64,000 bases of DNA, from NCBI GenBank assembly GCA_000004985.1, contig GG738862.1; one strand, 5' to 3'. Positions 14,484-42,963 of this stretch are shown here, piece by piece (positions within the stretch are counted from its first letter, which is position 1; every line of letters begins with the position of its first letter). The notes beneath the pieces were generated by a model. The model was given only the letters and a program-made list of their open reading frames with translations. It had not been told where the DNA came from and ran no database searches. This stretch comes from Naegleria gruberi (lineage: Eukaryota). Position numbers and translations under genes: made by a program.

Positions 14484-14688
14484 ATCAATGATGCAAAGAA
14501 TAAATAGTTTAGTTTCGAATATTCACTACGAGCCAACGAGCTAAGAAATGTCGTCGAGCTGTGAAATATTTTCGCAATTATTAAAAAATAAAAATGGTGA
14601 GACCTTTCAATACTTTCATTCTCAATTTAGAGACATGAAAAACAAATTTAGTCATTATCCGCCAGTATAAAAGCTAACAAAACAACAT

Positions 14689-15357: not shown

Positions 15358-15389
15358 CAACTTGTCAACCAACAATCAACAAATAAAAT

Positions 15390-20678: not shown

Positions 20679-20797
20679 GGCTACGGCCATATCACGATGA
20701 ATGCACCTCATCCCGTCCGATTTGAGAAGTTAAGCATCGTCGAGCCACATCAGTACTGAGGTTGGAGACAACTTGGGAACCTGTGGTGCTGTAGTCT
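20679..20797 (+). rRNA. 5S ribosomal RNA gene (copy 2)
   Basis: Identical to copy 1 across ~118 nt. The upstream box ttgaagagtgaaagattaaggaattgaa and a downstream T6 run are conserved. Confidence 0.85.
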
Positions 20798-22175: not shown

Positions 22176-24035
22176 ATGTATCAAAGGAAAGCATTGATAA
22201 CTAACCAATCAATCCTTAGTGTCAGTTTGCTGCTAGTTTGTTTACTGGCATTAAGTATTTTGCATGTTCCATCATCTGTTTTGTGTGCTTCCTCAAGTAG
22301 CTCATCAAGTAATGGAACTGTGAGAGAATGGCTCAATGACTTGAATGATCAAGCTGCTAATCTACAATCCTCTGCTTCAAGATTGCAAAAAGCTATTGCA
22401 ATTTTGAGTATGGCCAACAATACAGCATCCATCATCAGCATGAGAAATGCCCAGCTAAAGAAGATTAATTCTGCACTTGACATGATTAATCAAGAAATTT
22501 CAATCTTTAAAATCACCTGCAGTAATAATGATGGTCCTGATTGTAGCATTCCAGTATGTGTATCAAAGTGTTTGAACTGCTCTGGACCTGGAAAGTGTGG
22601 TGTTTGTTCTGGTAATTTTGATGGAAGTGATTGCTCTGCATGTAAATCTGGATGGAGTAATTACAATAGCAATTGTACTGTTCCAATTTGTGATTCTAAA
22701 TGTATTATTTGTCAATCACCTGGAAACTGTACCAATTGCTCTGGTAATTATGATGGTTCTGTATGTTCATCATGCAAATCAGGATGGAATGGTTCTAATT
22801 GTTCAACACCTATTTGTGATTCTAAATGTGTAACTTGTCTCTCACCAGGAAACTGTACTAATTGCTCTGGTAATTGGACTGGATCTGCCTGTTCTATTCC
22901 TGTATGTGATTCCAAATGTTTGAATTGTTCAGCACCTAGTGTTTGTTCTCAATGTTCTGGTAATTGGGTTGGTTTAACTTGTTCAGTATGTCAGACAGGA
23001 TGGACAGGAGCAACTTGTTCAACACCAGTATGTGATTCCAAATGTACAACCTGTGCATCTCCTGGTGTTTGCTCAGTTTGTTCTGGTAATTGGCAAGGAT
23101 CTACATGTTCCACATGTAAGACAGGATGGACAGGAGCAACTTGTTCAACACCAATTTGTGATTCCAAATGTACAACCTGTGCATCTCCTGGTCAGTGTTC
23201 TGTGTGTTCTGCTGGTTGGACAGGAGCAACTTGTTCAACACCAGTTTGTGATTCTAAATGTACAACATGTGCATCTCCTGGTCAGTGTTCTGTGTGTTCT
23301 TCTGGTTGGACAGGAGCAACTTGTTCAACACCAGTTTGTGATTCCAAATGTACAACATGTACATCTCCTGGTGTTTGCTCAGTTTGTTCTGGTAACTGGG
23401 ATGGTCCTTCATGTTCTGTGTGTAAAACTAGTTGGACAGGTTCATCTTGCAATCTCGCTCTTGGTGATTTTGCAAACTCACCATTATTCTCCGCTAGTTA
23501 TGGAGCTAGGTTGATCACATCTATTTTGAGTGGCGTTATGAAGAAAACACCAACCAGACTCTATAGAGCCATGGCAACTTATGGTATGGGAATTGGTTAT
23601 GGCTATCATCCTTACGCTTTCCATAATGCCTGCAATGGTTATTCTTCAACAGTTACAATTGTGAAAACATCAGCAGGGGCTGTATTTGGTGCCTATCTAA
23701 GCATTCCATGGGAAGATTATAATGCTGGGGATACAACAACTCGTAAGACATTTTCAGATCCTAATGCATTTCTATTTAGTATGGTAACATCGAGCGGTGT
23801 GGAGAGATTTGTGAAATTGGGTTATTCTGGAGCTGTTGGACAAACTGTTACATACAATTTTATAACACATCCATTGTTTGGAGCGTCGGATATTTATTTG
23901 GGACAAGGGATGAGCTATCAGCCAGCACCTGATGCTTATTCGAAACCAGCAACTTTTCAACCTTTGGAACCTAACTGGAGTTATGGAACTACATATTCAT
24001 TCACTGTTTCTGATTATGAAGTGTATAGTATTTAA
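22176..24035 (+). CDS. Secreted Cys-rich (EGF/laminin-EGF-like repeat) protein with C-terminal TLDc domain
   Basis: Signal peptide (LLLVCLLALSILHV). At least 10 repeats of CxSKCxxCxSPGxCxxCSGNWxGxxCSxCKxGWxGxxCSTPxCD. The C-terminal region LYRAMATYG...AFHNACNG...VTIVKTSAGAVFGAYLSIPW...AFLFSM...SFTVSDYEVYSI fits the TLDc pattern. Confidence 0.75.
   Translation: MYQRKALITNQSILSVSLLLVCLLALSILHVPSSVLCASSSSSSSNGTVREWLNDLNDQAANLQSSASRLQKAIAILSMANNTASIISMRNAQLKKINSALDMINQEISIFKITCSNNDGPDCSIPVCVSKCLNCSGPGKCGVCSGNFDGSDCSACKSGWSNYNSNCTVPICDSKCIICQSPGNCTNCSGNYDGSVCSSCKSGWNGSNCSTPICDSKCVTCLSPGNCTNCSGNWTGSACSIPVCDSKCLNCSAPSVCSQCSGNWVGLTCSVCQTGWTGATCSTPVCDSKCTTCASPGVCSVCSGNWQGSTCSTCKTGWTGATCSTPICDSKCTTCASPGQCSVCSAGWTGATCSTPVCDSKCTTCASPGQCSVCSSGWTGATCSTPVCDSKCTTCTSPGVCSVCSGNWDGPSCSVCKTSWTGSSCNLALGDFANSPLFSASYGARLITSILSGVMKKTPTRLYRAMATYGMGIGYGYHPYAFHNACNGYSSTVTIVKTSAGAVFGAYLSIPWEDYNAGDTTTRKTFSDPNAFLFSMVTSSGVERFVKLGYSGAVGQTVTYNFITHPLFGASDIYLGQGMSYQPAPDAYSKPATFQPLEPNWSYGTTYSFTVSDYEVYSI
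23030..23400 (+). repeat. Near-identical in-frame 87-nt tandem repeats inside the Cys-rich gene
   Basis: gcaacttgttcaacaccagtttgtgattc(c/t)aaatgtacaac(a/c)tgtgcatctcctggtcagtgttctgtgtgttct repeats about four times, encoding ATCSTPVCDSKCTTCASPGQCSVCS(A/S)GWTG. Confidence 0.8.
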
Positions 24036-24946: not shown

Positions 24947-25038
24947 ATTATTTTACTAATTTATACATTTTCAAATTGGAAACTCAATCGAAACAATTTA
25001 ATTGATCAATCTTGAAACTTTAGTTGAAAGAATAAAAA

Positions 25039-25156
25039 GACTACAGCACCACAGGTTCCCAAGTTGTCTCCAACCTCAGTACTGATGTGGCTCGACGATG
25101 CTTAACTTCTCAAATCGGACGGGATGAGGTGCATTCATCGTGATATGGCCGTAGCC
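25039..25156 (-). rRNA. 5S ribosomal RNA gene (copy 3, minus strand)
   Basis: Exact reverse complement of the 5S sequence. The upstream box is present but carries a ~20-nt insertion (tgatgaaagattattataaa) between box and gene. A T-run terminator follows on the minus strand. Confidence 0.85.
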
Positions 25157-26085: not shown

Positions 26086-27129
26086 TTGAAGAATAAAAAA
26101 AAGATTTTAATAATTTTCGAAAAAATGAGTAGGATCGGGAAAGTGTGGTCATTGTTCGATCATTTTTGCGATTTATTAGCATCTCATCACGCAATACTAA
26201 ATGAGGAACCATTTGTAAATTTCCCTACTACTTCACTATCGGTCAGCCAAAAGCTTTTTGAAGATTTTAAACAATACACCACCCACCATAGAGATTATAA
26301 AGGGTTTCCTACAAGAAAAGGACATAAAAAGAACAAGTCTCTTCTTCCGAAGAACACAACAATGCCAAAGAATCACGAAGGTATTGTTAAAATGTTCAAT
26401 AATTTCTTCAATGCAAAGAAATCTTACATTCAAGAAAAACTCGAGGAAGATAAAAAGAACGGCCCTACCATTGCAGGTGTTGTTGAAGTTGTTGAGTGTG
26501 ATAAAGATGACAATGAGCAAGAATTATCAGATGACGAGGTTGTTGTGGATCCCAATGACGAAGATGTTGAAAAGAAATCATATTCTGTCTCGAACGAATC
26601 AGTAACAAGTATAATTAAGAAAGATATGAATGAATTAAAATCCAAACAGAGGAAAATATCTGACATTCAAGACTATGAAATTGAAGAAAAGCCCTTAAAG
26701 ATTAAAAAGAAAGAACTTGTTAAACAACAAGACCAGCAGGCCAATCTATGCAGAGGTGCTATTATAACATTAAAGAAAGAGGCAAAGCAAGCTATTGATA
26801 TTGATACAGAATCTCAAGATAAGAATATGACACAAACAAAGCTGTGTGTTCAAAAGATAGAACAAGTGTTAGAAGAAACTGTACCTATAATTGAAAAAGA
26901 AGCAAAAGAACTTCAACAAAGAAAAGAAAAAGTATTGGCTGAATTACAAAAAGAAGAAGAACGTATCAAATTAAGCATGGGACTTGTAACTACTGCTTCT
27001 CAATTCAAAGAACATTTGGTTGGTTTTATTCATGAGAAGGAAATAGAGTTTGCTAAATTGGAACAACAAGAGGAGGAGAACTTGAACGATTTTTATGCAA
27101 ATCTGTTCAAAAACTCAAACAATAAATGA
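26086..27129 (+). CDS. Hypothetical Lys/Glu-rich coiled-coil protein
   Basis: 347-aa ORF. The C-terminal half, EKEAKELQQRKEKVLAELQKEEERIKLS, is predicted coiled coil. Confidence 0.45.
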   Translation: MKNKKKILIIFEKMSRIGKVWSLFDHFCDLLASHHAILNEEPFVNFPTTSLSVSQKLFEDFKQYTTHHRDYKGFPTRKGHKKNKSLLPKNTTMPKNHEGIVKMFNNFFNAKKSYIQEKLEEDKKNGPTIAGVVEVVECDKDDNEQELSDDEVVVDPNDEDVEKKSYSVSNESVTSIIKKDMNELKSKQRKISDIQDYEIEEKPLKIKKKELVKQQDQQANLCRGAIITLKKEAKQAIDIDTESQDKNMTQTKLCVQKIEQVLEETVPIIEKEAKELQQRKEKVLAELQKEEERIKLSMGLVTTASQFKEHLVGFIHEKEIEFAKLEQQEEENLNDFYANLFKNSNNK

Positions 27130-27187: not shown

Positions 27188-30100
27188 TTATTTAAAAACA
27201 ATTTTCTGATTGTTAATTAAAACATTGTAAAGATGAGAAAGTTCAAAGAGACACGACTTGTCACGAATGTTAATAATTGTCCTCAAATATTTCACTGCAT
27301 CCCTATTAAATATTCTACACTTGTACAAGAGTGGAAGTCCTTCAAGAGATTCTCTTGAAATAAGTCCAAATTCATCAATAATTGATTGTTGGAATAATTC
27401 CTCTTCCTTAGAGTTTGGTGCATAGGGTTTTGGAGCTATTCCCAAGAATTTACAGAACTCATCTTGTTCTAATTGATTGGCAAAATAGAGAGATCCAGCA
27501 AATATGTGAATGTCAGTCAACAAGTTCAGTAATACCTTGTCAGCAATTTCAAAGTTATTATTTGGTACACTCCATGCTGGTTCATCAATCATGATACGAG
27601 AGGTAGGACTTGTTCGTGAGCAGAACATGAGTATACGAGTTGGTGAAAATTTGTCCAACTTTTGAATATAATGATTAGCCTCTTCTGGACTCAAAATGAT
27701 AATTGTTTGTGAGTATTCACTGTAGGCCAGCCAAGTGACGGGTTTGAAGAATGGACTATTCTTGGAAGCATTCGAAACAGTTTTGAGGTAATTGTCAGTG
27801 GCATAAATGTTGTGATTCCAATTGATTGGAGAGGCCAATAGAGTTTCTTCCAAAGATTCAGATAATGGACGGGCTTTAAGTGGTTGAATGGAGACATCAT
27901 ATTCCTCTTGGAGAATGCCCTTCTTCATGAATAACTCCAAGGTATCGTCAATTACAGTAGCTGCAGGATCACATTTTTGAGGTCTCTCTACAATTCTTTG
28001 CTCTTCCAATTCATTTTCCAATTCTCTTTCCTGTTCCTCGTTGAGTATTTGTGAAAAGATAGTTTTAGAGTGAGCTCTCTTATTAATATTTGCTCTAATT
28101 AATTCCAAAGAAGGAGAAATATCTATGGAAAAGAGTTTTGAAATGTGAAGGGCTCTCTTTTCAAAGATACTGAGAAGGTATTGTTCATATCTTTCCTGTC
28201 CATAAAAATCACTAATTTTGAATAATTCATTTTCAGTGCACTGCTCTGCATATTCATCCATTTTAAGCTTGGCATCATATTCGGTTTTGGCAATTTTTTT
28301 AGAGTAGAAGAGCAATCCACTAGTTGACCATTGTAGATAGTGATCATTTTCCATTTGTACTCTATTGTGAATGGACCATTTCAATATTCTTTCTTGGATT
28401 GTAAGCTGTTGTGAAAAATTGTCATTAATAAAACGATCAACTTCTTGACTTGCCCAGAAGGCAACAGAGTGTCCTTTTCCTAATAATCTCATTCTCATAC
28501 AGGCTTGGCATAGTCTCTCAAATGTAAGACCATTACCCAGTGTTACGGCTGCTTTCATTCCAGTAGGGAATTTGAGATCTGTACCTCTTGTGTGAATATC
28601 ATCAAGATAAATCAAACATCTTTCCAATTTGTTCTTATAGGGAGATATTTCGAATGGAATTATCAAACCATTTCTATCCAAAACAACCAATTGATCTTGG
28701 GTGTTGAAAAATACAGCTGCATCTGCAACTTGTTCAGTCACAGAGTTTAACCAGTATTTGCAAAGATTCATATTACTCATTTCAAGCATGAGCGCTCCCA
28801 CATCAATTAATACTCGTTGGTTATTAGCATTCAATTCAGATATAAAGTTAGTAATCTCTGCTTGTTTGACAACATGATATTCTTCATTCTCTTTAGAGAG
28901 GAGAATTTTCAATAATTCTCCAGTAGTTCCCCTAAGGGAAGGAAGCTCATTTTCCTTAATGGTGATTGGCAAAAGGAATGCCTTCGTTCCAGAGAATCCA
29001 CAAGTAGGGAATTTACTTTCCTTACAAAGATTCCAAGCTGATGCTGAAATCTTTCTATCAAACTGTTTACATTCTCTTGAGAATACAGCTCGATTGAGGA
29101 AAAAGTCAATCACTGCCATGTTATTTCTTAAAGCTGGGTATAAAACTTGTGTCTTTTGAATAAAGTCTTCCAAGTTAATGCTCTTGTAATGTTTGATTGA
29201 TTCGGGAATATTTTTCATTTCATAGACCCATTTCTCATATTCCACATCGGGAGATTCTATTCTTTGAAGGAATTGGAAAACCACATCTAATTGTTCATTA
29301 GTCAATCCAGAATAATAATAACTCAATAATGTTAAAAGAATTGCAATATCTGGATGCCCAAACTCGGCTCTATCAGAAGGGCAATCCTTAGCTCTGTAAG
29401 GAACAGCCACCAATCTCTTGATATTAGGATTGACTCCATAATTAACTCTCCATCTCTTATTGAGCGAGTGATACAATAATCCAAAAGCAAATATACCTCT
29501 CATTAATAAAATTTCCGATTTTAAAATATCATTTGACATGGTAGAAAGAATATCCAACTCAGTTTGTGAAATGGTTTCTGCTGTTAATATCTTCTTAATA
29601 TTTTCTCGGTCGTTCAATTTGTAAGGAATGAAAATTTCACTTGCCCTTCCTTCTAAAATATCATCTACAATTAAATCAACTAATTGATTGTAAGATGTCT
29701 TATCTAAAACTCTAAAATAAGGGAAAGTATGAGAATCTCCTCTAGTAAAGAATTCAACATGTGAAGCGCCAAGTTTGTTGAATAAACTTTCAGCATGCTT
29801 TCTAACAATTCTCATAATTTTTTGAGGTAATATCCATCTCAGATTTCCCATATCCAAATCTTTTTGTTCTCCCACAGTATAAATTAATTGATATCTAACA
29901 TGAAGAATTTCATCACTTTCATCGAGAATATCTCTGCAGTGTTTTTCGAAATAGTCTTGTAATCTCAAATAATCGTGAGCAATTGATTCCTTAGCAATTG
30001 CTTTTTCAATTCCTTTCAATTCAAATGACAATCTATATTCTGGAACAGTGATAAGAATGCTCCTTTCCTTTTCCATTACTTCCAATACACTTCTAATAGT

Positions 30101-33100
30101 CTTTAAATCTGTTGCAGTAATTTTCAAATCTCTGCTAAATGGTAGATAGATTACCTTTCTATTAAGAATTCCACCAAGTTTAAATGAAAGATATGTATAA
30201 TTGGTCTGGAGTAATTGTTTTAGTACAGTCAATCGAGGAATTTGTGCTTCGTTAAATGCAAGGACTAACATTGGAATAATTACCGATGTTTTGCCTTCTC
30301 CCATATTGAATTGGAGAACCATGTTTGTACTTGAGGAAAGCATGTGATTTGCAACTTCATATTGTCTTGGTCTAATCATCAAATCGAGTTCAATTTCCAA
30401 TAATAACCATTGGGGGAACTTTTTAGGGCTCCAATTAACATGTCCACTATTTTCAAGTTCTCTATCAAATTGTACCTTCTTATTTGGATCATTGTTCATA
30501 AGTTTCAATCTGTTGTATCGTTGTTCCAAAGTTGTTAATACAGCAAGAGCTCCAATCAAGTCTTTACAACCACAATACTGTTCAGTATCTGATATCAAAT
30601 CCTGGAATAACAGATATGGGCATAAACGATTTGAAATTCCACATTCTGCTATTGCTGATTTTGCAGTATCGGAAAAATTAGAAAGTTTACATTCCAGAGC
30701 TTTCCAAATTTTTTCTTTCAATTCCAATATGACAGAAATATTAGGCAGTTGTGCTGAGGTTACTTGGTTTGGGTTATTGGCTGTCAAATAACTGCCCTCC
30801 AGGTCTAGAATGTACTCGTTGTAAAGAGGGTCATGAGAGTCATGTGAAAATAATTGAACATCATGCTCCAAGGTTTTGATTACATCCTTCTCACAATATG
30901 GTGATATGTCACCTTTTTCAAAAATGTATTTAGCCATTTCTGGAACATCAGCTAATCCAAAAACAAGCTTATTTCCATCTTCTTGTACCTTGGTAAAATT
31001 CTGAATATCAAATGTTTGATTTGTTTCGTTTGGCTGTAAATTCTCCATTGTAATGTTGACTATTGTTATGTCACCTTTAGCATTATTCATCATATTTTGG
31101 AGAACTGATTTAATACCTTGTAAAAATTTTTGAACTCGTTCTCTATTGTAAAGTGTAGATAAATAGTTATTGATATGATCGACAGCTTCACTCTTATCAA
31201 TAAAATTTAATCTTCCAAATTTGTTTTTCTCCATTAATTGCTCCTTATTGAATGCTATTTCAGCAAACCTTAGGCATGTTCTAATATCATTATTAAACGT
31301 TTCATGGTCATCCTCATCATCAAATGTTAGTCTACTATTTGCCGCTTTCAATAAATTTATAACGTCATCTTCATCAAAATCAGTACATTCCAAATCATCA
31401 ACACTTGAAAAAATTAAAGGTGAATGTTGATTTCTAAAAGAATTGGCAAATAAATTAATAATCATGAAACAAGCCAACATTTTCTTTTTTTCTGGGAATA
31501 CATAACCGAGATAAGATATGAAAACTTTGAAATCGGCAGGTGTTTGAGTTTTGGCTGCTTCATAGAGTGTGAGGAAATCATCTTCGAGGTCAATATTTTT
31601 CCAATCATACAGGAAGTTCTCCACTTTTTTTTCTGGATTGAACGAGGACACTGAATTGATAAGTTCAACTGCTGAAATTTTCTGAAAATTATTTTTTGAA
31701 ATAGATGCCAAGTACTTGCAAGCAACATAGGATGTCATTGAAGAGATCTTGATTGTTTCAACATAATTGACATCTTTTTGAGAACTAATTCTTAAACGTA
31801 CAATAGGATTGTAATAATTAAGGTAGGCTTTGTAATACCTTCTTGCCAAGAAGAGAGGATCTTCCTCGTCACTCTTTTTAACACTACTGCCACTTTCCCC
31901 GTCTAGGAAAATTGTCTCCTCTGACTTTTTAACAATAGAGTCCACAATTAGTTTGTAAGCATCCAAAAGACATAAACTTGATAAATTTGTTTTAGGCCAT
32001 GTTATCTTCTCATTGACTTTCATTTTTGGTGGATGGAAGCTTCTGTCAGGAGAAATAGATGAAATGGCCTCTAGTAGAGAGGTTTCCAATTTTGAGAGAG
32101 GTCTCATTGGCCAACATCTTGCAGATTTCAAAATTTTGAGAGCTGATTCATAACCTGTTAATTTTGTGAATGGATCGACTATTACAGAGCTGGTGATACC
32201 ATGAAGAAGTGCCAAAAAAAGCCAGGACGATAAGCTATCATTAGCTTCTAATTGCCACATGTACTCATTAACAGAATAGGTGAAATAAGGAGTATCTATT
32301 GATTTAGTCATATCGATACGTGTTAAATGGTGATGTTTGAATTTTTCTGTTGAAATTTCACCATTTGGTACAAGCACAATCTTTTTAGAAGAGTTTGGAT
32401 TTTCGTCCTTCAGCATTATGGCATTAGAAAGTCCAATTAATGTACCACAATAAAATGAATCGCAAACTATCATTGAAAACTCCTTTGATCGTAAATAGCT
32501 GTTGTTCACCAATTCAAAGTGAAGTCCCAAACGTGGAAGTTCCACTAACACTTCATCATTATTTGCAAATATATGAATATTATGTTTGAGTTCAATTCTT
32601 GAAATTGATTTCAATACTTCTGTATACGTTTCTCCAAAATAATTCATGAGTACTCTTTCAGTACCAACTTCTTTCAATTTCTTTTCTGTGACATCGAGTT
32701 TGTAAGCAATGCTACTTTTAAATTTTGGAGAAAAGAAAGAAATAGGTCTGAAAAGCACACAATTAGTTGTAACATCATACCAATGACTGTAGTTTTCCAC
32801 AAATTGAGCTGGAAGATCATATTCAAAAATTTTGTGAGACAATAAAATAGATGTTTCAGAGCCATGCTTCAGAATGAATTGCATACTTTTTCTAAACTCC
32901 AGTTGACAGCCGTCAATATCGTACGATGTCACAAAAGCATCTGGACGTGTGGCTTGTTGCACATCAAACACAAAATTACCAAACACTCTCTTATACTTTG
33001 CATCTGCTGTGATAGGATCAGGAAGTCTTCCAATTGGATTTCCATTGACAAGGAATGTTCCTCTAACAATATTGAAGGCAATTGCTGTAAATCCCGAATC

Positions 33101-36100
33101 GGTAAGAAGTGCTGCCTTAACCCATCCATTGGCTACCTTTTCCCATTTTGCATATGGATCAGTGTATCCAGACCAATAGAACTCAGCAAATATATTCAGT
33201 GCAATAGATGGTAATCCAATATATTTTTCAATTAAACAAGCAGTTTGGTAATAGCGTCTCAATAGGAAAACTTTGAGAGTGTTTTTAGGAAATGTGAATT
33301 GTTTGCTCAACACAGTGTTGTCATGAATTCTAGAAACACATTTACACCAAATTTCTACGTTTGTGTGAATAGCTAATTGAGGTTTTAGTACTGAAGGTTC
33401 CAAATTGAATGTAAGAACTGCACAACAATTAATGTCAATCAGATTTTGTCTAATTTTGGCTATTTCTAGAGGTGGAGAATCAGTCATTGTAACAATAAGC
33501 GTTTCAATGTCTTTGGACCACTTCAATATCAAGTTTCTGATTTTGGTCAAAAATTCAATGTACTTGTCAATAATTGATTGAGTAATATGAATATTGATAA
33601 CCCTCAGAGCAGCAACTATTAAAACTAGTACAACTTGGTATGATTTCCAGTTTTCCTTATACTTTTCCAATATAGATTCGAGCAATTCCAAAAGTTTTGA
33701 GCAAAACATTGAATTTTGTAATGGCTCATTAACTTCTCTGTACCACACATCAGAATCGTTTGGGCAATTTTGAAGCATGGATTGAAGCAGTAGAACAGTA
33801 ACATCTGGCCTCTGAATGGAAAGTTTTTCATTGGCCAAACATCTCACTATATTGTGCCACTGTAGTCTAAATCCTGCCCGTAGTGAACCATATTCTACAA
33901 ACTCGGCCAAACTTAGATTTGGATGACAGAGTGCTTGGTTGGCTATTACTTGATTTTGAGAGTGATCGAAACCACTAATAGCCCATTCCAGATTGGCATA
34001 TTCAGGTGATTCAATTTTAAAGGTAAAATTACTTTCCTTCATTGATGAATGAGTCATTGTGTATGTGTGGTCGTTACCAACTGTTGCCACTAGGTCACAT
34101 CCATTTGGTTTTAAAAAGCTATCCTCTGAACTCTGTACATGCTGCCGTGAGTAGTGAGTGTCAGAAAATCCTTTCACAGTACTACCAATAGTTGAGCAAG
34201 GTGGACGTCCAGATGTGAAATTCTCAAGGTAGCCTTGTTCTCTCCAAGTGCTTGGAATTTTATCTGTTTTCTGAACTCGGCATTGAAGCTGAGCCATACA
34301 GAAGAATGCATCTCTATAATTCATATAATAATTCGGAATTAATAATTCAAAAACAATTGCATATTGTTCCACATATCCTGAAGGTAAAAAATCTTCAAAA
34401 ATTGAAACATAAGTATTGTCCAAACTTCTTTTCAATGAGCATTTGGAGCAATATTTGGAATGCCTTGTATAGCCATGAACATTAATGAAATATTCACATT
34501 CCATATTATTGTATCTGTTATAGTTTCTTTGATAATCATTCTTTCCTCTCCTTACTTCTTCAAGCTTTTGTTTTTTTCTTTCTTCATTCTCTTTTAGAAT
34601 TTGATCCAATGTTTGTCTCATTGTCTTGTCGTGTCTCACAAAAAGGACACAATAGGAGTTAGCACTGAGTTTGTTTGTCAAAAAATCACATGGGCGTTTG
34701 GTTGTCTTATCGAAACGTGTGAAATATTGTTCCAATTCGAGAGCAAATTTCATATCACTCGGAGAATCGAGTAATAAATATTTAAATGTAGATACATCCA
34801 CTCCTGTTGAATATTCTTCTAACAGTTTGGAGCATGAAATGGCTATAATGTGCATAGCTTTCAAGAAGCCAAATAATGTCAGTATGAATCTGCTCTTTCC
34901 TATTGGATCGTTTTCATAGAATTTCGAACCTAAATTGTAATAGGCATCCATTTTCTTATATACTGTATCAGAGAATGATTTTCCCTTCTTACTTTCATCA
35001 ATGATTGTGAATAGCTCGTCTCTAACCCATGATTCATACTCCATTAATTGTCTTGTTGTGTAAATGTTATCATGTTCTTCCTTAGGAAGTGATGAATTCA
35101 AAAGACTGATTTCCCTTTGTTCAAAAAGGGTTTTGTTGTCCTTAATCTTTTGCAGAGAGTTACTTAAATTTTGAGAGCAAGAATCGGTATTCTTTGGAAA
35201 ATTAGTGTTAAATGTATCATTCTTTTTGATTTCCTGAATTGTTACATCCATTCTTTTTTGGATGAATTCCTTTGTGTCTCTAGTTGTAAATAATGCTGAT
35301 GACTTGGATACGTGAAGCATATCCTTTAACTTTTGATTATTCACCTCTTTGCTTAAGGTACTTTTAAGGTTTTCTAACTTGGTCGCTCTCAATGAAATTT
35401 TGATTATCATTTGCATTAGATAATCATTACTCATATTAATATACGTTCTCGCTTTTTTGCATAAATAGCTCATAAAATCCAGCATGAAAAGTTTGTAAAG
35501 AAACTTCCCCTGAATAGGTCCATATATTTTGTTGAATTTGTAATGCAGTGATGCTTTCAGGGAAATCCAGAAAGGAGATCTTCTTGTGCCATCCTGTTTA
35601 GGCCTCACAAAACTTCTCACTTTCTTTTTAATATTATTAGCTACAATATTAGTAGGACCACCAGAGAGTAGTGAAAGCATCCATTCTGTTATTAAAATTG
35701 GAGAAGAAACTTCTCTATCTTCCGAAACAACTGTTCCTTTCCTCTTTGTTTTTGCTGAACTCATTTCCTGACTTTCAGTCAAATAAGTTAATTGATTTAA
35801 AAATGATTGACTTTCTAATACTGGAATATTATCATCCAGTACTGAAACTGATAACTCGGGATAAGTCATGCAACAAATGTCACATTTATAAATATTTGCA
35901 TTCTTTGGATGACAAGTAAATGCTGACGCAATATACTTTGGTGTACTATCACTCGAATATTCGAACATTAACAAACAATTATTTCCAGTTAAATAGAACG
36001 AAATGCAATCATTACTTTCAGTCAGGTAAGATGTAATTGTTTTTCCCTTAGGAATGTCAATATCATTCAAATTAGATTGCACTGCAGCAATATTTGCAAA

Positions 36101-36415
36101 ATATTTATCCAACCACTTTAAGGAAATACCAGATAGTAAATTATCCGAATGTTCCTTTCTAAATTCCATCAAATGGTGCAAAACTTCCATATTTTCATCC
36201 AATCCACTTTGTTTTATCGTGTAAAACACATCGGAATACATTCTAAACATTGACTCTGATGCCGTCTTACTCCTCTGTGATGACGATAACGTACCAGAAG
36301 CCTTTGTTGGCTGATTATTGTTTGCATTATTTGCCGTTGTGTTAGTATTTGCTGTTGTTGAAGTTTGTTGCGAAGAAGAATTCGCTGATGGAACAAAAAC
36401 CATTTTTTTTTTCAA
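27188..36415 (-). CDS. Giant intronless protein (3075 aa) with an internal P-loop-like GEGKT motif. Resembles the DUF3638/DUF3645 family of giant proteins.
   Basis: Single uninterrupted 9.2-kb ORF. FNMGEGKTSVIIPMLVLAFN is Walker-A-like. About 90 aa downstream lies DILDESDEILHV, an acidic Walker-B/DEAD-like patch. The N-terminus is low-complexity and Asn/Thr-rich. Confidence 0.6.
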   Translation of the reverse strand: MKKKMVFVPSANSSSQQTSTTANTNTTANNANNNQPTKASGTLSSSQRSKTASESMFRMYSDVFYTIKQSGLDENMEVLHHLMEFRKEHSDNLLSGISLKWLDKYFANIAAVQSNLNDIDIPKGKTITSYLTESNDCISFYLTGNNCLLMFEYSSDSTPKYIASAFTCHPKNANIYKCDICCMTYPELSVSVLDDNIPVLESQSFLNQLTYLTESQEMSSAKTKRKGTVVSEDREVSSPILITEWMLSLLSGGPTNIVANNIKKKVRSFVRPKQDGTRRSPFWISLKASLHYKFNKIYGPIQGKFLYKLFMLDFMSYLCKKARTYINMSNDYLMQMIIKISLRATKLENLKSTLSKEVNNQKLKDMLHVSKSSALFTTRDTKEFIQKRMDVTIQEIKKNDTFNTNFPKNTDSCSQNLSNSLQKIKDNKTLFEQREISLLNSSLPKEEHDNIYTTRQLMEYESWVRDELFTIIDESKKGKSFSDTVYKKMDAYYNLGSKFYENDPIGKSRFILTLFGFLKAMHIIAISCSKLLEEYSTGVDVSTFKYLLLDSPSDMKFALELEQYFTRFDKTTKRPCDFLTNKLSANSYCVLFVRHDKTMRQTLDQILKENEERKKQKLEEVRRGKNDYQRNYNRYNNMECEYFINVHGYTRHSKYCSKCSLKRSLDNTYVSIFEDFLPSGYVEQYAIVFELLIPNYYMNYRDAFFCMAQLQCRVQKTDKIPSTWREQGYLENFTSGRPPCSTIGSTVKGFSDTHYSRQHVQSSEDSFLKPNGCDLVATVGNDHTYTMTHSSMKESNFTFKIESPEYANLEWAISGFDHSQNQVIANQALCHPNLSLAEFVEYGSLRAGFRLQWHNIVRCLANEKLSIQRPDVTVLLLQSMLQNCPNDSDVWYREVNEPLQNSMFCSKLLELLESILEKYKENWKSYQVVLVLIVAALRVINIHITQSIIDKYIEFLTKIRNLILKWSKDIETLIVTMTDSPPLEIAKIRQNLIDINCCAVLTFNLEPSVLKPQLAIHTNVEIWCKCVSRIHDNTVLSKQFTFPKNTLKVFLLRRYYQTACLIEKYIGLPSIALNIFAEFYWSGYTDPYAKWEKVANGWVKAALLTDSGFTAIAFNIVRGTFLVNGNPIGRLPDPITADAKYKRVFGNFVFDVQQATRPDAFVTSYDIDGCQLEFRKSMQFILKHGSETSILLSHKIFEYDLPAQFVENYSHWYDVTTNCVLFRPISFFSPKFKSSIAYKLDVTEKKLKEVGTERVLMNYFGETYTEVLKSISRIELKHNIHIFANNDEVLVELPRLGLHFELVNNSYLRSKEFSMIVCDSFYCGTLIGLSNAIMLKDENPNSSKKIVLVPNGEISTEKFKHHHLTRIDMTKSIDTPYFTYSVNEYMWQLEANDSLSSWLFLALLHGITSSVIVDPFTKLTGYESALKILKSARCWPMRPLSKLETSLLEAISSISPDRSFHPPKMKVNEKITWPKTNLSSLCLLDAYKLIVDSIVKKSEETIFLDGESGSSVKKSDEEDPLFLARRYYKAYLNYYNPIVRLRISSQKDVNYVETIKISSMTSYVACKYLASISKNNFQKISAVELINSVSSFNPEKKVENFLYDWKNIDLEDDFLTLYEAAKTQTPADFKVFISYLGYVFPEKKKMLACFMIINLFANSFRNQHSPLIFSSVDDLECTDFDEDDVINLLKAANSRLTFDDEDDHETFNNDIRTCLRFAEIAFNKEQLMEKNKFGRLNFIDKSEAVDHINNYLSTLYNRERVQKFLQGIKSVLQNMMNNAKGDITIVNITMENLQPNETNQTFDIQNFTKVQEDGNKLVFGLADVPEMAKYIFEKGDISPYCEKDVIKTLEHDVQLFSHDSHDPLYNEYILDLEGSYLTANNPNQVTSAQLPNISVILELKEKIWKALECKLSNFSDTAKSAIAECGISNRLCPYLLFQDLISDTEQYCGCKDLIGALAVLTTLEQRYNRLKLMNNDPNKKVQFDRELENSGHVNWSPKKFPQWLLLEIELDLMIRPRQYEVANHMLSSSTNMVLQFNMGEGKTSVIIPMLVLAFNEAQIPRLTVLKQLLQTNYTYLSFKLGGILNRKVIYLPFSRDLKITATDLKTIRSVLEVMEKERSILITVPEYRLSFELKGIEKAIAKESIAHDYLRLQDYFEKHCRDILDESDEILHVRYQLIYTVGEQKDLDMGNLRWILPQKIMRIVRKHAESLFNKLGASHVEFFTRGDSHTFPYFRVLDKTSYNQLVDLIVDDILEGRASEIFIPYKLNDRENIKKILTAETISQTELDILSTMSNDILKSEILLMRGIFAFGLLYHSLNKRWRVNYGVNPNIKRLVAVPYRAKDCPSDRAEFGHPDIAILLTLLSYYYSGLTNEQLDVVFQFLQRIESPDVEYEKWVYEMKNIPESIKHYKSINLEDFIQKTQVLYPALRNNMAVIDFFLNRAVFSRECKQFDRKISASAWNLCKESKFPTCGFSGTKAFLLPITIKENELPSLRGTTGELLKILLSKENEEYHVVKQAEITNFISELNANNQRVLIDVGALMLEMSNMNLCKYWLNSVTEQVADAAVFFNTQDQLVVLDRNGLIIPFEISPYKNKLERCLIYLDDIHTRGTDLKFPTGMKAAVTLGNGLTFERLCQACMRMRLLGKGHSVAFWASQEVDRFINDNFSQQLTIQERILKWSIHNRVQMENDHYLQWSTSGLLFYSKKIAKTEYDAKLKMDEYAEQCTENELFKISDFYGQERYEQYLLSIFEKRALHISKLFSIDISPSLELIRANINKRAHSKTIFSQILNEEQERELENELEEQRIVERPQKCDPAATVIDDTLELFMKKGILQEEYDVSIQPLKARPLSESLEETLLASPINWNHNIYATDNYLKTVSNASKNSPFFKPVTWLAYSEYSQTIIILSPEEANHYIQKLDKFSPTRILMFCSRTSPTSRIMIDEPAWSVPNNNFEIADKVLLNLLTDIHIFAGSLYFANQLEQDEFCKFLGIAPKPYAPNSKEEELFQQSIIDEFGLISRESLEGLPLLYKCRIFNRDAVKYLRTIINIRDKSCLFELSHLYNVLINNQKIVFK

Positions 36416-36583
36416 GCAATTTTATGAAATTTTTTCCATCACGTGATGAGAATATAAATTTATTTAATTTTGCGCAATCGGAATGAATTTTCGGAATTAA
36501 TTGAAAGTAAACAAGATAACAATAATAATATTGTTTTTACAGCAGCAACTTGTATTCAATTTGGTGAAAGTTATTAAAAAACT

Positions 36584-37150
36584 CTATTTCCTTAAATGTC
36601 TAATCAATTTTTGAATTTTTGGAGCATACTTGTAAGTGGCAATTAATCTAAAAGGTTCCAACAGACGATTCACAATGTAAGCCACTGCAAAATTAGCATA
36701 CTTTTCCGATTGATCGATTTTTGTGGCATCAATGAGATTCAACTGAATTAAATATTCCATCACTGCTCTTGTTGGCAATAATCCATTCTGGAATAACAAG
36801 TACAAACAACCCAATGTTGCAAAGTATTGAGAAAAGTAAAAGATTAAACCTGTAGCTCCGTAATTCTTGATGAATTCTTTGATTTTTTCGAGGAGAGTCT
36901 TTTTGATTGGTGGATTCTCCTTAGTTTCGGTTGAGGAAGAGGTTGGGTTGATGGTTAGAGGAGTTTGTTGGAAGGATTTCTCTTGAGTTTGTTCGTGATT
37001 TTGCTTGACAATGTTTTGGTAGAAAGTTCGAGAGCAGACAATGAGCGGTTCCATGAGGAAACTGTTTACGAAAGGTTTCGAATTGGATTTGGAGAGAATA
37101 ACAGTGGATCCTTTTGAGAGGACAAAAGATCTTCTTGTAGATGTAATCAT
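36584..37150 (-). CDS. FAM210/DUF1279-family protein, probably mitochondrial
   Basis: KEFIKNYGATGLIFYFSQYFATLGCLYLLFQNGLL fits the DUF1279 pattern ([KR]xYGxxxhxxxhxxSxxxhxxxYhhh). N-terminal MITSTRRSFVLSKGS is rich in hydroxylated and basic residues, like a mitochondrial presequence. Confidence 0.55.
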   Translation of the reverse strand: MITSTRRSFVLSKGSTVILSKSNSKPFVNSFLMEPLIVCSRTFYQNIVKQNHEQTQEKSFQQTPLTINPTSSSTETKENPPIKKTLLEKIKEFIKNYGATGLIFYFSQYFATLGCLYLLFQNGLLPTRAVMEYLIQLNLIDATKIDQSEKYANFAVAYIVNRLLEPFRLIATYKYAPKIQKLIRHLRK

Positions 37151-37306
37151 GTTGTTGTTTTTTTGTGTTTTGGAATGTGAAATTCAAAGCTGGAGTAGTG
37201 ACACTTGATTGTAAATCTATGTTCCACTGTGTAAAATAGAAATCCTTCCATTAGAATAAAGATCATCCACAAATCATTACGGAGAAGATAATTGTAAATG
37301 TTTATT

Positions 37307-40300
37307 TTACAATTCCACAATTTCAATTTCATCACTCTTATCTTTGAGTTGAATGACTGGATAAATATCATTCAAGAGTTGAGGATCATTGCTCACTGAG
37401 AGTTTCTTGAGAAGAATGAAAGGTTTCTTATTATTGACCGAAACCCAAATTGTTCCATTCTTATCTAGATTCATTTCAACAGTTGTTCCACTTCTTTCAT
37501 TTACAACCACTTCTCTCACTCCAGATTCTGGCATTTTAATTCCCTCCTGTCCACAGAAAAATCCATCATTCAAATAATAATACCATCCACATGTTTCATG
37601 ATTTGAAAAATTGTATTTCAATTTGCTTTTTGGTGCAAAGCCAAACATGATGCTTGAACTGATAGTGGAGAGGACTTTGATTTTGTATCTGAAAGTTTTG
37701 GTTAATACAACTGTGCAATTCCATTCACTTTGTGACATGCCAATCTTTTTGGCACGTTTTGGATTGGTGAGTTGAGCTGTGAGACTCTTTGCTTCTGAAT
37801 CGAATGTAATATCCACAATGGCTTGATCAAAGTTTGATCCACAAATGTTAATATTCGAACCAGCAAAATCATGTCCATTTAAATTACATTTAGATAAATT
37901 GGCACCAAACATATTAGAGTTGGTAATGAGAGTTTGTGAGAGGTTACATTGAGAGAAATCTGCCTCTGTAAGATTACAATTGGTAAAGACAGCTCCTTGT
38001 AAATTGGCATGTTTGAATACTGCTCTGGAAAGGTCGAGTTTTGTAAACTGAAATCCTTCCAAATTACAATCAGTAAAGTCCACTCCTGTGACACTTAATG
38101 AACTTTGCAACACATCCGTATCAAAGAAGGCAGAACAGAGTTTGGCTCCGCTGAGACTGAGTCCATCATTGAGGATTGACTTGATATTACATCCAAAAAG
38201 GATAGCCTTATTGAGCGAGCTGTTTCTCAATAGAGCTGAATCTAAATTACAATAGGTAAAGTTTGCTCCCTCAAAATTACAATTGGATAGATTAGTTTTG
38301 GAAAGGTTGCAATTGGACAAGTTGGCCAAACTGAAATCAGAGCCAAAGAAATCTAAGGATGACAAGTCGAAACCAATCAATGAAGATCTTGACCAATTGG
38401 TGGATCTTAGACTTGTAGATTTTCTCAATAATCTTTCATTAACCATAGAACCACTAAATTGTGAGCTACTCAAATCATATCCAGTACTCGTAGATGCTAC
38501 TTGTGTCAAGTCACACAAATTAAAGTTTACATTTCTACATATTGCCTTTTCAATGTTACAACCAAATAATTTAGAGATTTTGAGTGTAACTCCATTCAAA
38601 GAGGCTCCAACGAACTTGGAATTACTCAAATCACATCCAATCATTTCACAATTACTGAGAGTGCATCCACTGAAATCACAATACTTGAAATTGCAATTGT
38701 GGAATTTGGCCTTGGAAATTTGAATTCCAGATAAATCACAATCAACAATTTCAGCATCCATAATAGTGATATTACTCAAATCCAATTGTTTGAGATCCTT
38801 CTTGGTGAGAATGAGTGGTTTCTTTTGATATTTGGAAGTACTCAATAAGAAGGTGAAATCATTTTGAGAGAGAACAGTTGAATCAGTTGTCAATTCAGCA
38901 GTTTCCTCATCAATTTCATTGACAATTTCATCCTTGAGAGATGCTTTCATCTTGTTCAATCCGAAATATTCCGCAACATGACTCAATCTTTCCTTTAAAT
39001 ATTCACAATCAATACTAATATTACCATATCTGAGCCAATGCAATATATATTTGAACAATGCAGGATCACAATCAATAAAGTAAGAACCATCCTCACATTT
39101 TCTCAATGGATATTCACCATCAAACATTTTAGCCAACACTGAATTCTTTTCCAAACTCGTATCAGTAAGTGTTTGAAGAGTTGCCTTCATCTTTTTACCT
39201 CCAACGTTCAAAGTAATTGGTTGATTAGATTTTGGAAGCTTGACACGATATTTAGCTGTCTGATCCCATTTTTTAGTTTCACTCTCCAACTTTTCTTTAA
39301 GAGTTTCAATTTTTTCCTGTAACATTTTACAATCATTTTCCAATTTGGCTTGCAAATCTGCCTTATCCGCAATTTCCTTCTCAAACTTGTCCTTCTTTGT
39401 GAGATATTCCTTTTCCCAATCCTGTTCAGTTTTAATCTTTGATTGGAGACGTGAGAGAGATCTAGATTTGGAAGGACTAAATGCTGGATTATAGGCATTC
39501 GATGCTGGACTTGGCATTTCCTTCTCAGCATCCAAAGCAATTGCCTCTTTCACCAATGCAGCAATTGGTGAATTCTTAATCGATGCACGATAAGCAAGAG
39601 CTACTGAATTAGCAGATGGAGTTGTCTTTCCATGTTGATAGAGAGGATTGATGAATTCAATTTCTTCCTCATCTTGATCTTGTGTTGGTTGTTCTTGTTG
39701 GAAATTGAGAGAAACTTGACTTGCTTCTTGAGCAAAGAAATTCAAGTTGACAGCACTTGCGAATGGATTTGCTTTCTTGACACGGACAACTTTGACTTTT
39801 TTGACATTTGGTGCTGATGATGATTGTTGAAGATTTGTTGATGGATTTGATGATGATGGTGATGGTGATGAATTTTGATTATTATTATTCTTAATGATGA
39901 AAAATAATTATTATTCGAAAGTTGGTGAATGTAAATTTTACATACATTGATAAAGACACTTTGACTTCTATAAATTGTATTAGATGACAAGGCTCCCATA
40001 GAATTAAAATCCGTAATTACATGTTGTGAATCCGCATCCAATAAAGTAGACGAAACTTGTGGAGATTCCAAAGAACAAGGAGAAACCACAGAAGGTGATT
40101 CGTCCACAAATGATGATACTGGCGAAGGTTGTATATCCAAACTTCCACGTAATTCTTCAGCTTCATCAGGAAAATCCGAAATTTGTGGCTTTCGTGTAGA
40201 TTTCGAATTCTTTGGAGGAGTAGACGAATCTCCTTCGCCACCACCACTTGTTTGATTGGAACCTAAACCAATTCTGTCCTTGAAAGTGCCCAAGTTTAGT

Positions 40301-40308
40301 CTTCTCAT
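37307..40308 (-). CDS. KCTD9-like protein: BTB/T1 tetramerisation domain plus pentapeptide repeats. Two exons; the intron is 39890-39945.
   Basis: ITLNVGGKKMKATLQTLTD...YFIDCDPALFKYILHWLRYGNI is a T1-type BTB. Many A(N/D)LxG/CNLxx pentapeptide repeats follow. Exon 1 (40308-39946, 121 codons) joins exon 2 through GTATGT...TTAAG, keeping frame. N-terminal Ser/Pro-rich region and poly-His. Confidence 0.65.
39890..39945 (-). other. Spliceosomal intron (56 nt) in the KCTD9-like gene
   Basis: Minus strand: gtatgtaaaatttacattcaccaactttcgaataataattatttttcatcattaag. Confidence 0.6.
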
Positions 40309-40492
40309 TTTTTTTTGTATGGTTTTTGGGTGATTTTGTAAGGTTTCGAATTTTCTTGTCGAGATTCGAATAAAAATGTGAAAGGTGAATTTGGGTCGAT
40401 ATTTGTCGAATTACCAAAAAGAATAGTTTTACCAAATGATATCTTTACCATTGTATTAAAAGAGTAAAATACAATAATTAAAAAAAACAATA

Positions 40493-41242
40493 ATGAAAAA
40501 CAGTTATTCGAAACATTTGAATCGTCTAGTTTCCAAACACTGGACAAAAACCAATCAAAATTACCTTTCCTCTCATTCCAATACACCAATTCCATTCTCC
40601 TCCCAATCCTACAGTCTCATTTTCAATTCCAAATCTACCAAAGTTTCGTCTCCTTTCTTCCCAACCAATTCCTTCCAATCCTTTCTCTATTCCTCAACCT
40701 CAACCTCCAAACCAACTTCCACTCCAAACTCCAATCTTTCCAATCAAGTTTCAAGTGGTCGCGTTTTCGATAATTTAAATTCCTCGTCAATTTTATTTAT
40801 CGATCCAACGAGTGGAATTCCAATTGTTTTTCGAAAGGAAAAATTAGAAACTTTTCCAATGAATAGTGAGAAGGAAGCTTCTGAAGAGGTTATTTATCAT
40901 AATTTAAAGTTTCTGGTGAATAATTCGATTTTGGAAGAAAGTGATTTGGTTATTCGATTGTGTGAATTGTGGATTTCTAATTTTGGAGATCCTGAGGATG
41001 AACAACATTCAATGGTGTTGTTGGGACAATATTTGAGAAAATGTGGAATTAAGAATAAGAACATTGATCAAATAATGAAGCAAGTGAATAGTTTCGGTTC
41101 GCATTATTCGAATTCGTTCAAAACCAATCATTCTTTATTCAATAGGGGAAATGAAGAGGTGGAACATCAAGATGAAGTGAACATTGACCGATTATTGACA
41201 ACACACAAAGCATTTCCCTACATTCAACTCGAAGAAGAATAA
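40493..41242 (+). CDS. Hypothetical Ser-rich protein (249 aa)
   Basis: ORF with an ATG start. Low-complexity S/T/P-rich N-terminal half and an ordered-looking C-terminal half. Confidence 0.4.
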   Translation: MKNSYSKHLNRLVSKHWTKTNQNYLSSHSNTPIPFSSQSYSLIFNSKSTKVSSPFFPTNSFQSFLYSSTSTSKPTSTPNSNLSNQVSSGRVFDNLNSSSILFIDPTSGIPIVFRKEKLETFPMNSEKEASEEVIYHNLKFLVNNSILEESDLVIRLCELWISNFGDPEDEQHSMVLLGQYLRKCGIKNKNIDQIMKQVNSFGSHYSNSFKTNHSLFNRGNEEVEHQDEVNIDRLLTTHKAFPYIQLEEE

Positions 41243-41283
41243 AACCAAAATTTATCTTTTTAATTCCACAAAATGTGTGAAAT

Positions 41284-42963
41284 TTAAATTGAATTCATAA
41301 AATATTCATCATCGTCATGCTCAATTGTAGTTCCCATCGATTCTAGATAAGTTTTGGCATCACCTTTTATCCAGCCAAACCAAGTTGGAAATTTAGAGCA
41401 CCAAAATAATGCCTTCTCATAATCAACAGGAATTCCACATTCACCCCTCATGTATAATTGTCCCAATGATATTAAGACTTCTTTTCTCGATAAAAAGGAA
41501 CACGATTTGGAAAGTTGTACGAGCTCTGCAAATCCACGCTGTTTATCTTGTGCAAGAAATCCTTGAATTCCTGTAATGTGTTTCCTTGCTATCCATGGTG
41601 AATACCAGTCAATATCGTCTCGTTTCTGTAAGAATGTGTAGATTTGGAAAATTGTGGAAATAGGTAATTGAGAATTACAAGCCCAACAAAGTGAATGAAT
41701 TGTCGATTGTTTCATGTTTCCAACAAAATATTGGAAAAATTCATTACAAATCGTACTTCCTTTCTTTGATAGAATTGTGGCATTGAAAAATAGTTCACAA
41801 GATATTCCATGCCCGATTTGACTGGGAGAGGTTGCTATACGAGAAAGACGCAAATTATCAAAAGTGGACAAAGCAGAGTCGTTACAATAATTGGATTCTT
41901 CATAGTTGTTATCGTACAGAGGAAGAAACAAGGAAAAACATGTCATTGACGAAAGTACATTGGAAATTTCGTTGTGTATCAGTTCTCTCTCTGATTCATC
42001 AAATAGGTTTTCCTTATTTTGATTGATAATGCTTAATTCACCAAGAAAGCGCATGATATTCGAATAGACATCTTTGGAATTAAAACAATCACTTAAATTT
42101 GTTAAGGCAAGATTAGAAATCAGACTAATATCCTCTCTTCCAATTAATTTTACCAGAAATCTATTACACAAATCCATAGCACTCTGGTTTCCGTTATAAG
42201 CAAGACGACACAAGGCCAAAAAACCACATTCTTTCGTTTTTTCAAATAAGGTGACTCTCTTTAGTCCCAAATTCATTTCACTCAATTTTGTTTCAAGTTC
42301 AGTAGTAAACTTTTGGCTTATCTGACAAATCTTTTCAGAATTTCCCTCCTTTAAATATTCTAATAGTGATGAAATACAATTTTCTAAACTAGGTAAATTA
42401 TCATAACTCTGTTTCACATCTATCAAGCTCAGTTTCTTTGCAAACTCAACATCTCCATTCAACAATGAAGAAACATACCAAGCCAAACTTGTGGGCATAT
42501 ACCTTCTAAAATCACCAACAAACATGCAGAGTTCTGGATATTGGTCGATTATGAATATAATCTTTTTCAATAATTCACACATTTCTAATAGTGGTTCAGT
42601 GATATTGTCGTCTTTGTTGCTGTCCACTAAAAAACGACACAAAACAATGGACGGATCATCCCAACACAATTCATAAATTGTTGCTTCACTACCAATTTCA
42701 AACCTCACTCTCCAACTGACATCATTTTCTTGATATTCAACATGAAACGGAGCAATCTTTCTCCATAAAAAACCATTAATAAACAATCGTCCGATTACAT
42801 CTTGACTTGTTAAATTATGAAATGAAGAAGTACTTGAAGAACTCAAGGGAAATAAGGCAAATTCGACAAGGTATTTAAACGAAGAGGTTTTCCTCTTGAT
42901 GAAATACAGCAATCCGCCTCTTTCTTCTGCCTTTATCCCTTTGAAATAAAAGAACGTGGACAT
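41284..42963 (-). CDS. Sel1-like repeat (TPR-like) protein
   Basis: C-terminal FAELVQLSKSCSFLSRKEVLISLGQLYMRGECGIPVDYEKALFWCSK fits the Sel1 consensus (A...LG.xY..G.GV..D...A..W). 559 aa. Confidence 0.5.
   Translation of the reverse strand: MSTFFYFKGIKAEERGGLLYFIKRKTSSFKYLVEFALFPLSSSSTSSFHNLTSQDVIGRLFINGFLWRKIAPFHVEYQENDVSWRVRFEIGSEATIYELCWDDPSIVLCRFLVDSNKDDNITEPLLEMCELLKKIIFIIDQYPELCMFVGDFRRYMPTSLAWYVSSLLNGDVEFAKKLSLIDVKQSYDNLPSLENCISSLLEYLKEGNSEKICQISQKFTTELETKLSEMNLGLKRVTLFEKTKECGFLALCRLAYNGNQSAMDLCNRFLVKLIGREDISLISNLALTNLSDCFNSKDVYSNIMRFLGELSIINQNKENLFDESERELIHNEISNVLSSMTCFSLFLPLYDNNYEESNYCNDSALSTFDNLRLSRIATSPSQIGHGISCELFFNATILSKKGSTICNEFFQYFVGNMKQSTIHSLCWACNSQLPISTIFQIYTFLQKRDDIDWYSPWIARKHITGIQGFLAQDKQRGFAELVQLSKSCSFLSRKEVLISLGQLYMRGECGIPVDYEKALFWCSKFPTWFGWIKGDAKTYLESMGTTIEHDDDEYFMNSI

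Follow-up and report, generated by a model that had tools for sequence, protein, structure and literature searches.

A giant Naegleria gruberi protein of the DUF6606-DUF3638-DUF3645 family with a predicted SecA-resembling SF2 ATPase core

The 64,000-nucleotide stretch of Naegleria gruberi contig GG738862.1 (GenBank assembly GCA_000004985.1) analysed here, hereafter the window, carries on its minus strand a giant gene whose product of 3071 amino acids (aa) contains the domains DUF6606, DUF3638 and DUF3645, and whose C-terminal third is predicted to be a two-lobed, DEAD-like P-loop ATPase of superfamily 2 (SF2). We estimate a probability of about 75% that the protein is an intact member of this family, with a motor that resembles SecA and uses ATP to remodel or translocate a macromolecule. 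With proteins of ~3000 aa that fall into ~3900 clusters at 50% identity, the family ranks among the larger portions of eukaryotic protein sequence to which no function has been assigned. New here are a confident SF2 ATPase model of the DUF3638/DUF3645 core, with SecA as its nearest solved relative, the finding that the deubiquitinase label carried by many homologues is unsupported, and the occurrence of the core within giant proteins encoded by amoeba-associated bacteria.

The gene occupies an uninterrupted open reading frame (ORF) at 27188..36415, which contains 3075 codons when counted from an upstream TTG. The first ATG lies at 36403, with an in-frame stop just upstream of it, and gives a protein of 3071 aa plus stop; the 3075 aa reported by an earlier, sequence-only reading thus holds for the codon count from the TTG and not for the protein from its first ATG, and the strand, which that reading had not specified, is minus. 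Its description of a 9.2-kb gene that is the largest in the window, intronless and unbroken in frame is borne out by the single ORF (the runner-up encodes 812 aa) and by full-length fungal homologues, which are collinear from aa 68 to 3062, so that no intron is required. At the composition of the window (33% GC, with 7.4% of random codons being stops), a stop-free run of 3075 codons has a probability of ~1e-103. The P-loop segment NMGEGKTSVIIPML is located at aa 2033-2046 (window 30266-30307) and the acidic DESDE patch at aa 2161-2165 (window 29909-29923), placing the latter 126 aa past GEGKT and not ~90 aa as first read. Upstream, the neighbour previously called FAM210-like does encode a FAM210A/B domain (ORF 36584-37150, minus strand; Pfam 3.5e-15), and its stop is 180 bp from the ATG of the giant gene and 168 bp from the first codon of the ORF, in line with the earlier figure of ~170 bp. 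On the other side, a convergent ORF (26086-27129, plus strand) terminates 58 bp from the giant-gene stop.

Searches with Pfam hidden Markov models (HMMs) placed both DUF3638 (PF12340; 271.9 bits against a Pfam cut-off of 31, model positions 1-224 of 225) and DUF3645 (PF12359; 56.1 bits, cut-off 25) above the gathering cut-off, as the sequence-only reading had proposed from the motif pair GEGKT/DESDE. That pair had been taken for the only recognisable signature, but DUF6606 (PF20255; 87.9 bits, cut-off 27, model positions 45-267 of 267) and a conserved N-terminal half of 1500 aa are recognisable too. Full-length relatives are fungal proteins of ~3000 aa with 30-34% identity (best full-length hit, 34%). 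Compared with three giants of the family (Suillus paluster XP_041181650, Cucurbitaria berberidis XP_040791523 and N. gruberi XP_002672799), the protein has the three Pfam domains in the same order, is collinear over aa 68-3062 at 22-40% identity and shares all conserved motor motifs, although it is divergent, with substitutions at several N-terminal positions that are near-invariant in the mostly fungal consensus. We therefore regard the gene as an intact, divergent, otherwise ordinary member of a known, uncharacterised family.

Querying with the core alone (aa 1930-2800) returned 561 homologous proteins from Naegleria (47-52% identity), bdelloid rotifers, a springtail, a fungus gnat, many basidiomycetes and lichen fungi, among which the motifs NMGEGK[ST]SVI and [IV]LDESDEIL[HS] are nearly invariant. 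A profile of the N-terminal region (aa 590-1500), run against 1.84 billion representatives, matched 3887 clusters at 50% identity (2194 with E<=1e-30) from fungi, rotifers and Naegleria. The family is thus very large and rich in paralogues. Its earlier attribution to giant proteins of amoebae and fungi was correct but too narrow, given the members in rotifers, a springtail, a fungus gnat and oomycetes and the core in amoeba-associated bacteria. That its biochemical function is unknown agrees with the literature, in which we found passing mentions alone, no member with a known function and the domain still termed undefined in 2025. With its intronless gene, the protist copy, together with the related Naegleria genes, offers convenient experimental material.

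An AlphaFold2 (AF2) model of the core (aa 1930-2800, built with 71 homologues) reached a mean predicted local distance difference test score (pLDDT) of 90.5 and a predicted template modelling score (pTM) of 0.88. In model numbering, GEGKT forms the loop that connects strand 99-102 to helix 109-120, and strand 227-232 ends in DESD, an arrangement predicted to have canonical Walker A/B geometry. The GEGKT region, earlier described as P-loop-like, accordingly lies in a modelled fold of nucleotide-binding type that matches SF2 helicase and SecA motors. Two tandem RecA-like lobes are present in the model, with motif III in lobe 1 and the arginine-bearing motif VI in lobe 2, and every nucleotide-handling motif is intact: K2038 in Walker A, D2161/E2162 in Walker B, GFSGT in motif III and R2606 in motif VI (Table 1). 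DUF3645 corresponds to an invariant hairpin, AVPYRAKDxPSxRAEFGHPD, inside a large insertion between motifs II and III. Weak Pfam matches to DEAD (PF00270) were found in 16 of 30 core homologues, and to ResIII in a few. Together, the model and motifs identify the C-terminal third as an SF2 (DEAD-like) P-loop ATPase with two lobes.

Among solved structures, the nearest to the modelled motor is SecA. In a Foldseek search of the core model against the PDB, ranks 1-10 were all SecA or SecA2 (E 3.4e-9 to 1.6e-5), followed by MDA5, the SNF2-type remodellers SRCAP/INO80, and DinG. Four motifs of the form GEGKT, DExDxIL, GxTGT and RGTD occur in the same order and with similar spacing as in Escherichia coli SecA: GEGKT at 105 in SecA and at 106 in the query model, VDEVDSIL at 209 and LDESDEIL at 231, GMTGT at 389 and GFSGT at 540, and GRGTD at 508 and TRGTD at 676 (query positions in model numbering). 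RGTD is the SecA form of motif VI, while DEAD, DEAH and SNF2 enzymes have motifs of the HRxGR or QRxGR types. The core model also has, as SecA does, a large domain inserted between motifs II and III, at the topological position of the SecA PPXD, and a long helix after lobe 2. The two proteins differ in that the insertion of the query is longer (~260 aa), mostly helical and bears the unrelated DUF3645 motif instead of PPXD, and in that its motor is embedded towards the C terminus of a eukaryotic protein of 3071 aa. The giant protein showed no evident SecY, membrane or signal-peptide context, although no search aimed at membrane targeting was made.

Table 1 Features of the giant gene and its predicted product, from N to C terminus
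Feature	Residues (aa)	Window position	Strand	Basis or remark
Complete coding sequence, 3071 aa + stop		27188..36403	-	ATG 36403-36401, TAA 27190-27188
DUF6606	94-316	35456..36124	-	Pfam 9e-25
Alpha/beta region	634-889	33737..34504	-	AF2 model; conservation in 140 sequences and in 15 full-length sequences
All-helical repeat (alpha-solenoid-like) region	889-1079	33167..33739	-	
Alpha/beta region	1390-1500	31904..32236	-	Bears LLHGITSSVIVDPFTKLTGYE
Predicted SF2/SecA-like ATPase core (modelled region)	1930-2800	28004..30616	-	
DUF3638, predicted RecA-like lobe 1	1988-2207	29783..30442	-	Pfam 4.5e-81
Walker A/motif I, NMGEGKTS	2033-2040	30284..30307	-	Strand-loop-helix in model; conserved in 131 homologues
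Walker B/motif II, LDESDEIL	2160-2167	29903..29926	-	Cf. E. coli SecA VDEVDSIL
Mostly helical insertion of ~260 aa between motifs II and III	2183-2445	29069..29857	-	AF2 secondary structure
DUF3645, within insertion	2330-2358	29330..29416	-	Pfam 2.3e-15; invariant columns
Motif III, GFSGT	2469-2473	28985..28999	-	Cf. SecA GMTGT
Motif VI, HTRGTD (arginine-finger candidate R2606)	2604-2609	28577..28594	-	Cf. SecA GRGTD
43-residue helix after lobe 2	2669-2711	28271..28399	-	Model H740-782; position of SecA scaffold helix
Invariant acidic motif EEQERELENELEE	2789-2801	28001..28039	-	Family alignment
Conserved C-terminal tail	2801-3071	27191..28003	-	Aligns with fungal homologues to aa 3062, with N. 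lovaniensis to aa 3068

Several results weigh against the reading of the protein as an intact giant with a SecA-resembling motor. The likeness to SecA is founded on structure and short motifs: none of the SecA Pfam families (SecA_DEAD, SecA_PP_bind and SecA_SW) was matched at E<=1 in 30 core or 15 full-length homologues, alignment of the family profile to E. coli SecA by hhalign gave a probability of 0.3%, and neither the whole core nor lobe 2 by itself gave a match in profile searches of PDB sequences. Attempts to demonstrate homology to SecA at the level of sequence were negative, the weak DEAD and ResIII matches being all that these searches yielded, and because there is no profile-level link we file the core as a SecA-resembling SF2 ATPase and not as a member of the SecA family. 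In the N-terminal region, the query departs from the mostly fungal family at positions that are at least 90-95% conserved (D775V, G880C, H892N, Y1457H, H58D and W273T); either these residues are non-essential or the N-terminal function has been partly altered in the protist lineage. PADLOC HMMs of anti-phage defence proteins and NCBIfam HMMs of bacterial families gave no match at E<=0.1 for the query or for two of the bacterial giant relatives described below, and the conflict-related role considered there is one that the distribution would suggest.

If the model is right, ATP binding and hydrolysis at the lobe interface would drive opening and closing of the lobes through K2038, D2161/E2162 and R2606; this movement would pass to the DUF3645 insertion and the scaffold helix, and these in turn could act on a macromolecule that the N-terminal scaffold holds, remodelling or translocating it. 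The proteins of the family are probably cytosolic. Given the SecA-like features, classical helicase action is no more likely than action on a non-duplex substrate, for example a polypeptide or protein-nucleic-acid complex.

The best-surviving alternative is that the protein is a conventional nucleic-acid helicase, translocase or sensor of the RIG-I-like, Dicer-related, SNF2 or NS3 kind, with a basic DUF6606 aiding the binding of RNA or DNA. The recurrent weak DEAD and ResIII matches are consistent with this, as is the predominance of Lys and Arg among the conserved DUF6606 residues, and GxGKT and GTxx are also SNF2-like. However, ten SecA structures outrank every helicase in the Foldseek search, and motifs II (DExDxIL) and VI (RGTD) are of SecA type, in contrast to those of RIG-I-like/Dicer-related, SNF2 and NS3/DEAH helicases. 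The topology of the insertion also differs from that of these helicases; in both the motif II-III insertion and the long helix that follows lobe 2, the motor parallels SecA and not RIG-I or SNF2. Furthermore, no Pfam signal for Helicase_C, SNF2 or the RIG-I C-terminal domain was present, nor any nucleic-acid-binding Pfam domain in the 3071 aa. On balance we consider this reading of substrate and role less likely than not.

More specific still is the reading that the motor acts on polypeptides in the manner of SecA, which we regard as doubtful. In its fullest form, the DUF3638/DUF3645 module would be a eukaryotic, non-secretory descendant or sister of SecA that clamps polypeptides presented by the N-terminal scaffold and threads or unfolds them as part of a conflict system; this version we consider improbable. 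If it were true, the family would be a class of giant cytosolic machines for protein remodelling that has so far gone unrecognised, and its paralogy and transfer into Chlamydiae- and Coxiella-like amoeba symbionts would mark a system of host-symbiont or self/non-self conflict.

The distribution of the core bears on the conflict part of this proposal. A pattern scan of 185,579 prokaryotic genomes identified four core-only relatives, all in metagenome-assembled genomes (MAGs): a 3237-aa ORF in a Parachlamydiaceae MAG (locus L008, 1578-11291) and a 2463-aa ORF in a Gammaproteobacteria MAG (L006, 4314-11705), each with a DUF3638 core, and DUF3638-core fragments in Coxiellaceae and Parachlamydiales MAGs (L007 and L009). 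Their N-terminal regions are unrelated to that of the query, and motif VI of the gammaproteobacterial copy reads HNTGVD, with the arginine replaced. Chlamydial and Coxiella-like lineages are typically associated with amoebae, and the bacterial giant ORFs may be effectors derived from eukaryotes. The huge number of paralogues, the patchy distribution and the capture by amoeba-associated intracellular bacteria suggest, speculatively, a role in a eukaryote-specific pathway that is targeted in host-symbiont conflict. A parallel SecA-like SF2 module in an amoeba endosymbiont comes from a single passing mention, without sequences, of 'SecA-like helicase-related domains' in effectors of Amoebophilus asiaticus (Zhang et al. 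2012, PMC3482391), which may be the same module as the DUF3638 core of the Parachlamydiaceae, Coxiellaceae and Gammaproteobacteria relatives. The prokaryote pattern scan recovered no Amoebophilus locus, and no relatives were found on viral contigs. A further set of 1500-aa 'bacterial' homologues from metagenomes was rejected, as they proved to be parts of fungal giant genes split by introns, and a DUF6606 ORF lies directly upstream of them.

The N-terminal 1500 aa form a multi-domain region that is conserved across the family, with aa 70-1500 aligning to the fungal giants at 22-27% identity (22-25% by BLAST) and weaker conservation across aa 1500-1900; no recognisable enzyme fold was found in it. 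In DUF6606, family alignments revealed conserved blocks (KAG..E.RDT..P, PWRRSP.WL, YK.FM and K..RR..KL) and mostly basic conserved residues (E228, R230, K260, R274, R275 and K304), with no conserved Cys or His. An AF2 model of aa 590-1500 (pLDDT 82.8, pTM 0.59) revealed, in order, a long helix, an alpha/beta region (CxxC/H/C), an all-helical repeat, a beta-rich region and a second alpha/beta region (H1401...D1410). Family-conserved residues of the first alpha/beta region comprise C652-x2-C655, E670, E686, R697, S741, K744, H750, Q823 and C826, of which C652, C655, H750 and C826 might form a structural metal site of CCHC type. No motif of the N-terminal half is stronger than LLHGITSSVIVDPFTKLTGYE (H1401, T1404, D1410 and G1417), in the second alpha/beta region. 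Across 140 sequences, positions conserved at 95% or more include C652, E670, E686, R697, S741, K744, H750, E834 and W849, as well as N918/W919, R956, H1207/W1208, H1401, T1404, D1410, G1417 and R1454, while Q823 and C826 are conserved at 85-95%.

Many homologues bear the automatic UniRef name 'ubiquitinyl hydrolase 1' (for example, D2VSX9_NAEGR and A0A815Z9V2), which would imply a deubiquitinase with a cysteine-protease site that cleaves ubiquitin conjugates. Candidate residues exist in the middle of the protein, where Q823...C826 is fairly conserved and H1401...D1410 conserved, and the query string TGNNCLL recalls the Cys loop of OTU proteases. However, the name is also found on fragments that contain only DUF3638/DUF3645 (from N. 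gruberi, 966 aa, and from a rotifer and a springtail), the core alignment has no conserved Cys, and zero peptidase or deubiquitinase Pfam matches were obtained at E<=1 in 15 full-length members. In the model, C826 lies in coil six residues ahead of a helix and H1401 within a helix, a geometry that is not papain-like. The OTU-like loop itself (aa 138-144, resembling the A20-type DGNCL) was rejected because Cys143 is not conserved in the family. A possible link between VTD deubiquitinases and giant fungal proteins was also discarded, as the VTD paper indicates that they are unrelated. A deubiquitinase is thus very improbable; the label is unsupported by sequence or structure, and on core-only fragments it looks like over-propagated annotation that may mislead genome annotators.

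Evidence that the gene is maintained came from a metagenome contig (ENA ERZ929261, run ERR1078381) with 98.4% DNA identity to window positions 34912-41382 and the same neighbours. Within the first 496 codons of the gene, the two strains differ by 8 synonymous and 6 non-synonymous codons and one in-frame CAA indel, corresponding to a ratio of non-synonymous to synonymous substitution rates (dN/dS) of roughly 0.2-0.3, which is consistent with purifying selection. The same contig tracks the window from 41382 to 34912 and then resumes at 33629-33420, so that 1283 bp of the giant ORF are missing from it; this skip would shift the frame and accounts for a 516-aa 'protein', and its cause could be either chimeric assembly at the end of the contig or a genuine deletion allele.

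Two further loci bear on gene models and family size. Naegleria lovaniensis has a full-length, collinear homologue that aligns over aa 91-3068 with 34-44% identity (PYSW02000012.1; L012 4788-14102), which is annotated as four genes of 666, 634, 681 and 609 aa. Its tblastn matches contain eight frame switches, suggesting short introns or long-read indel errors, and the public models probably split one gene of about 3100 aa. We found no synteny between the window and N. lovaniensis. On a fungal-type metagenome contig (L004), two tandem giant-gene copies (3-9053 and 11489-15778) lie within 16 kb, as would be expected if local duplication drives the size of the family.

Although the extreme paralogue richness, the tandem fungal copies, the 1283-bp discontinuity in the related contig and the broken frames of the N. 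lovaniensis homologue might suggest a decaying or selfish-element gene without host function (a pseudogene or mobile-element cargo), this explanation is hardly credible for a 9.2-kb stop-free gene with every ATPase motif intact, a synonymous excess and an in-frame indel relative to its sister strain, and ordinary neighbours 180 bp and 58 bp away with no transposase or repeat context noted.

Elsewhere in the window, no tRNA genes were found, and several other neighbouring ORFs of 190-580 aa had zero Pfam matches. Two neighbouring plus-strand ORFs encode Pfam domains, with DUF4116 (2e-16) at 18684-20606 and a TLDc domain plus a weak, below-cut-off match to teneurin-type EGF at 22176-24035. Two genes upstream of the giant gene, the minus-strand ORF at 37307-39745 encodes the 812-aa protein, in which BTB_2 is followed by long arrays of pentapeptide repeats (Pfam 1e-38), an architecture like that of KCTD9. 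The window also contains three dispersed 5S rRNA genes, at 3200-3318 (plus strand), 20679-20797 (plus) and 25038-25156 (minus), each scoring 105.4 bits in Rfam; they are mutually 100% identical over 119 nt, and their flanks are unrelated.

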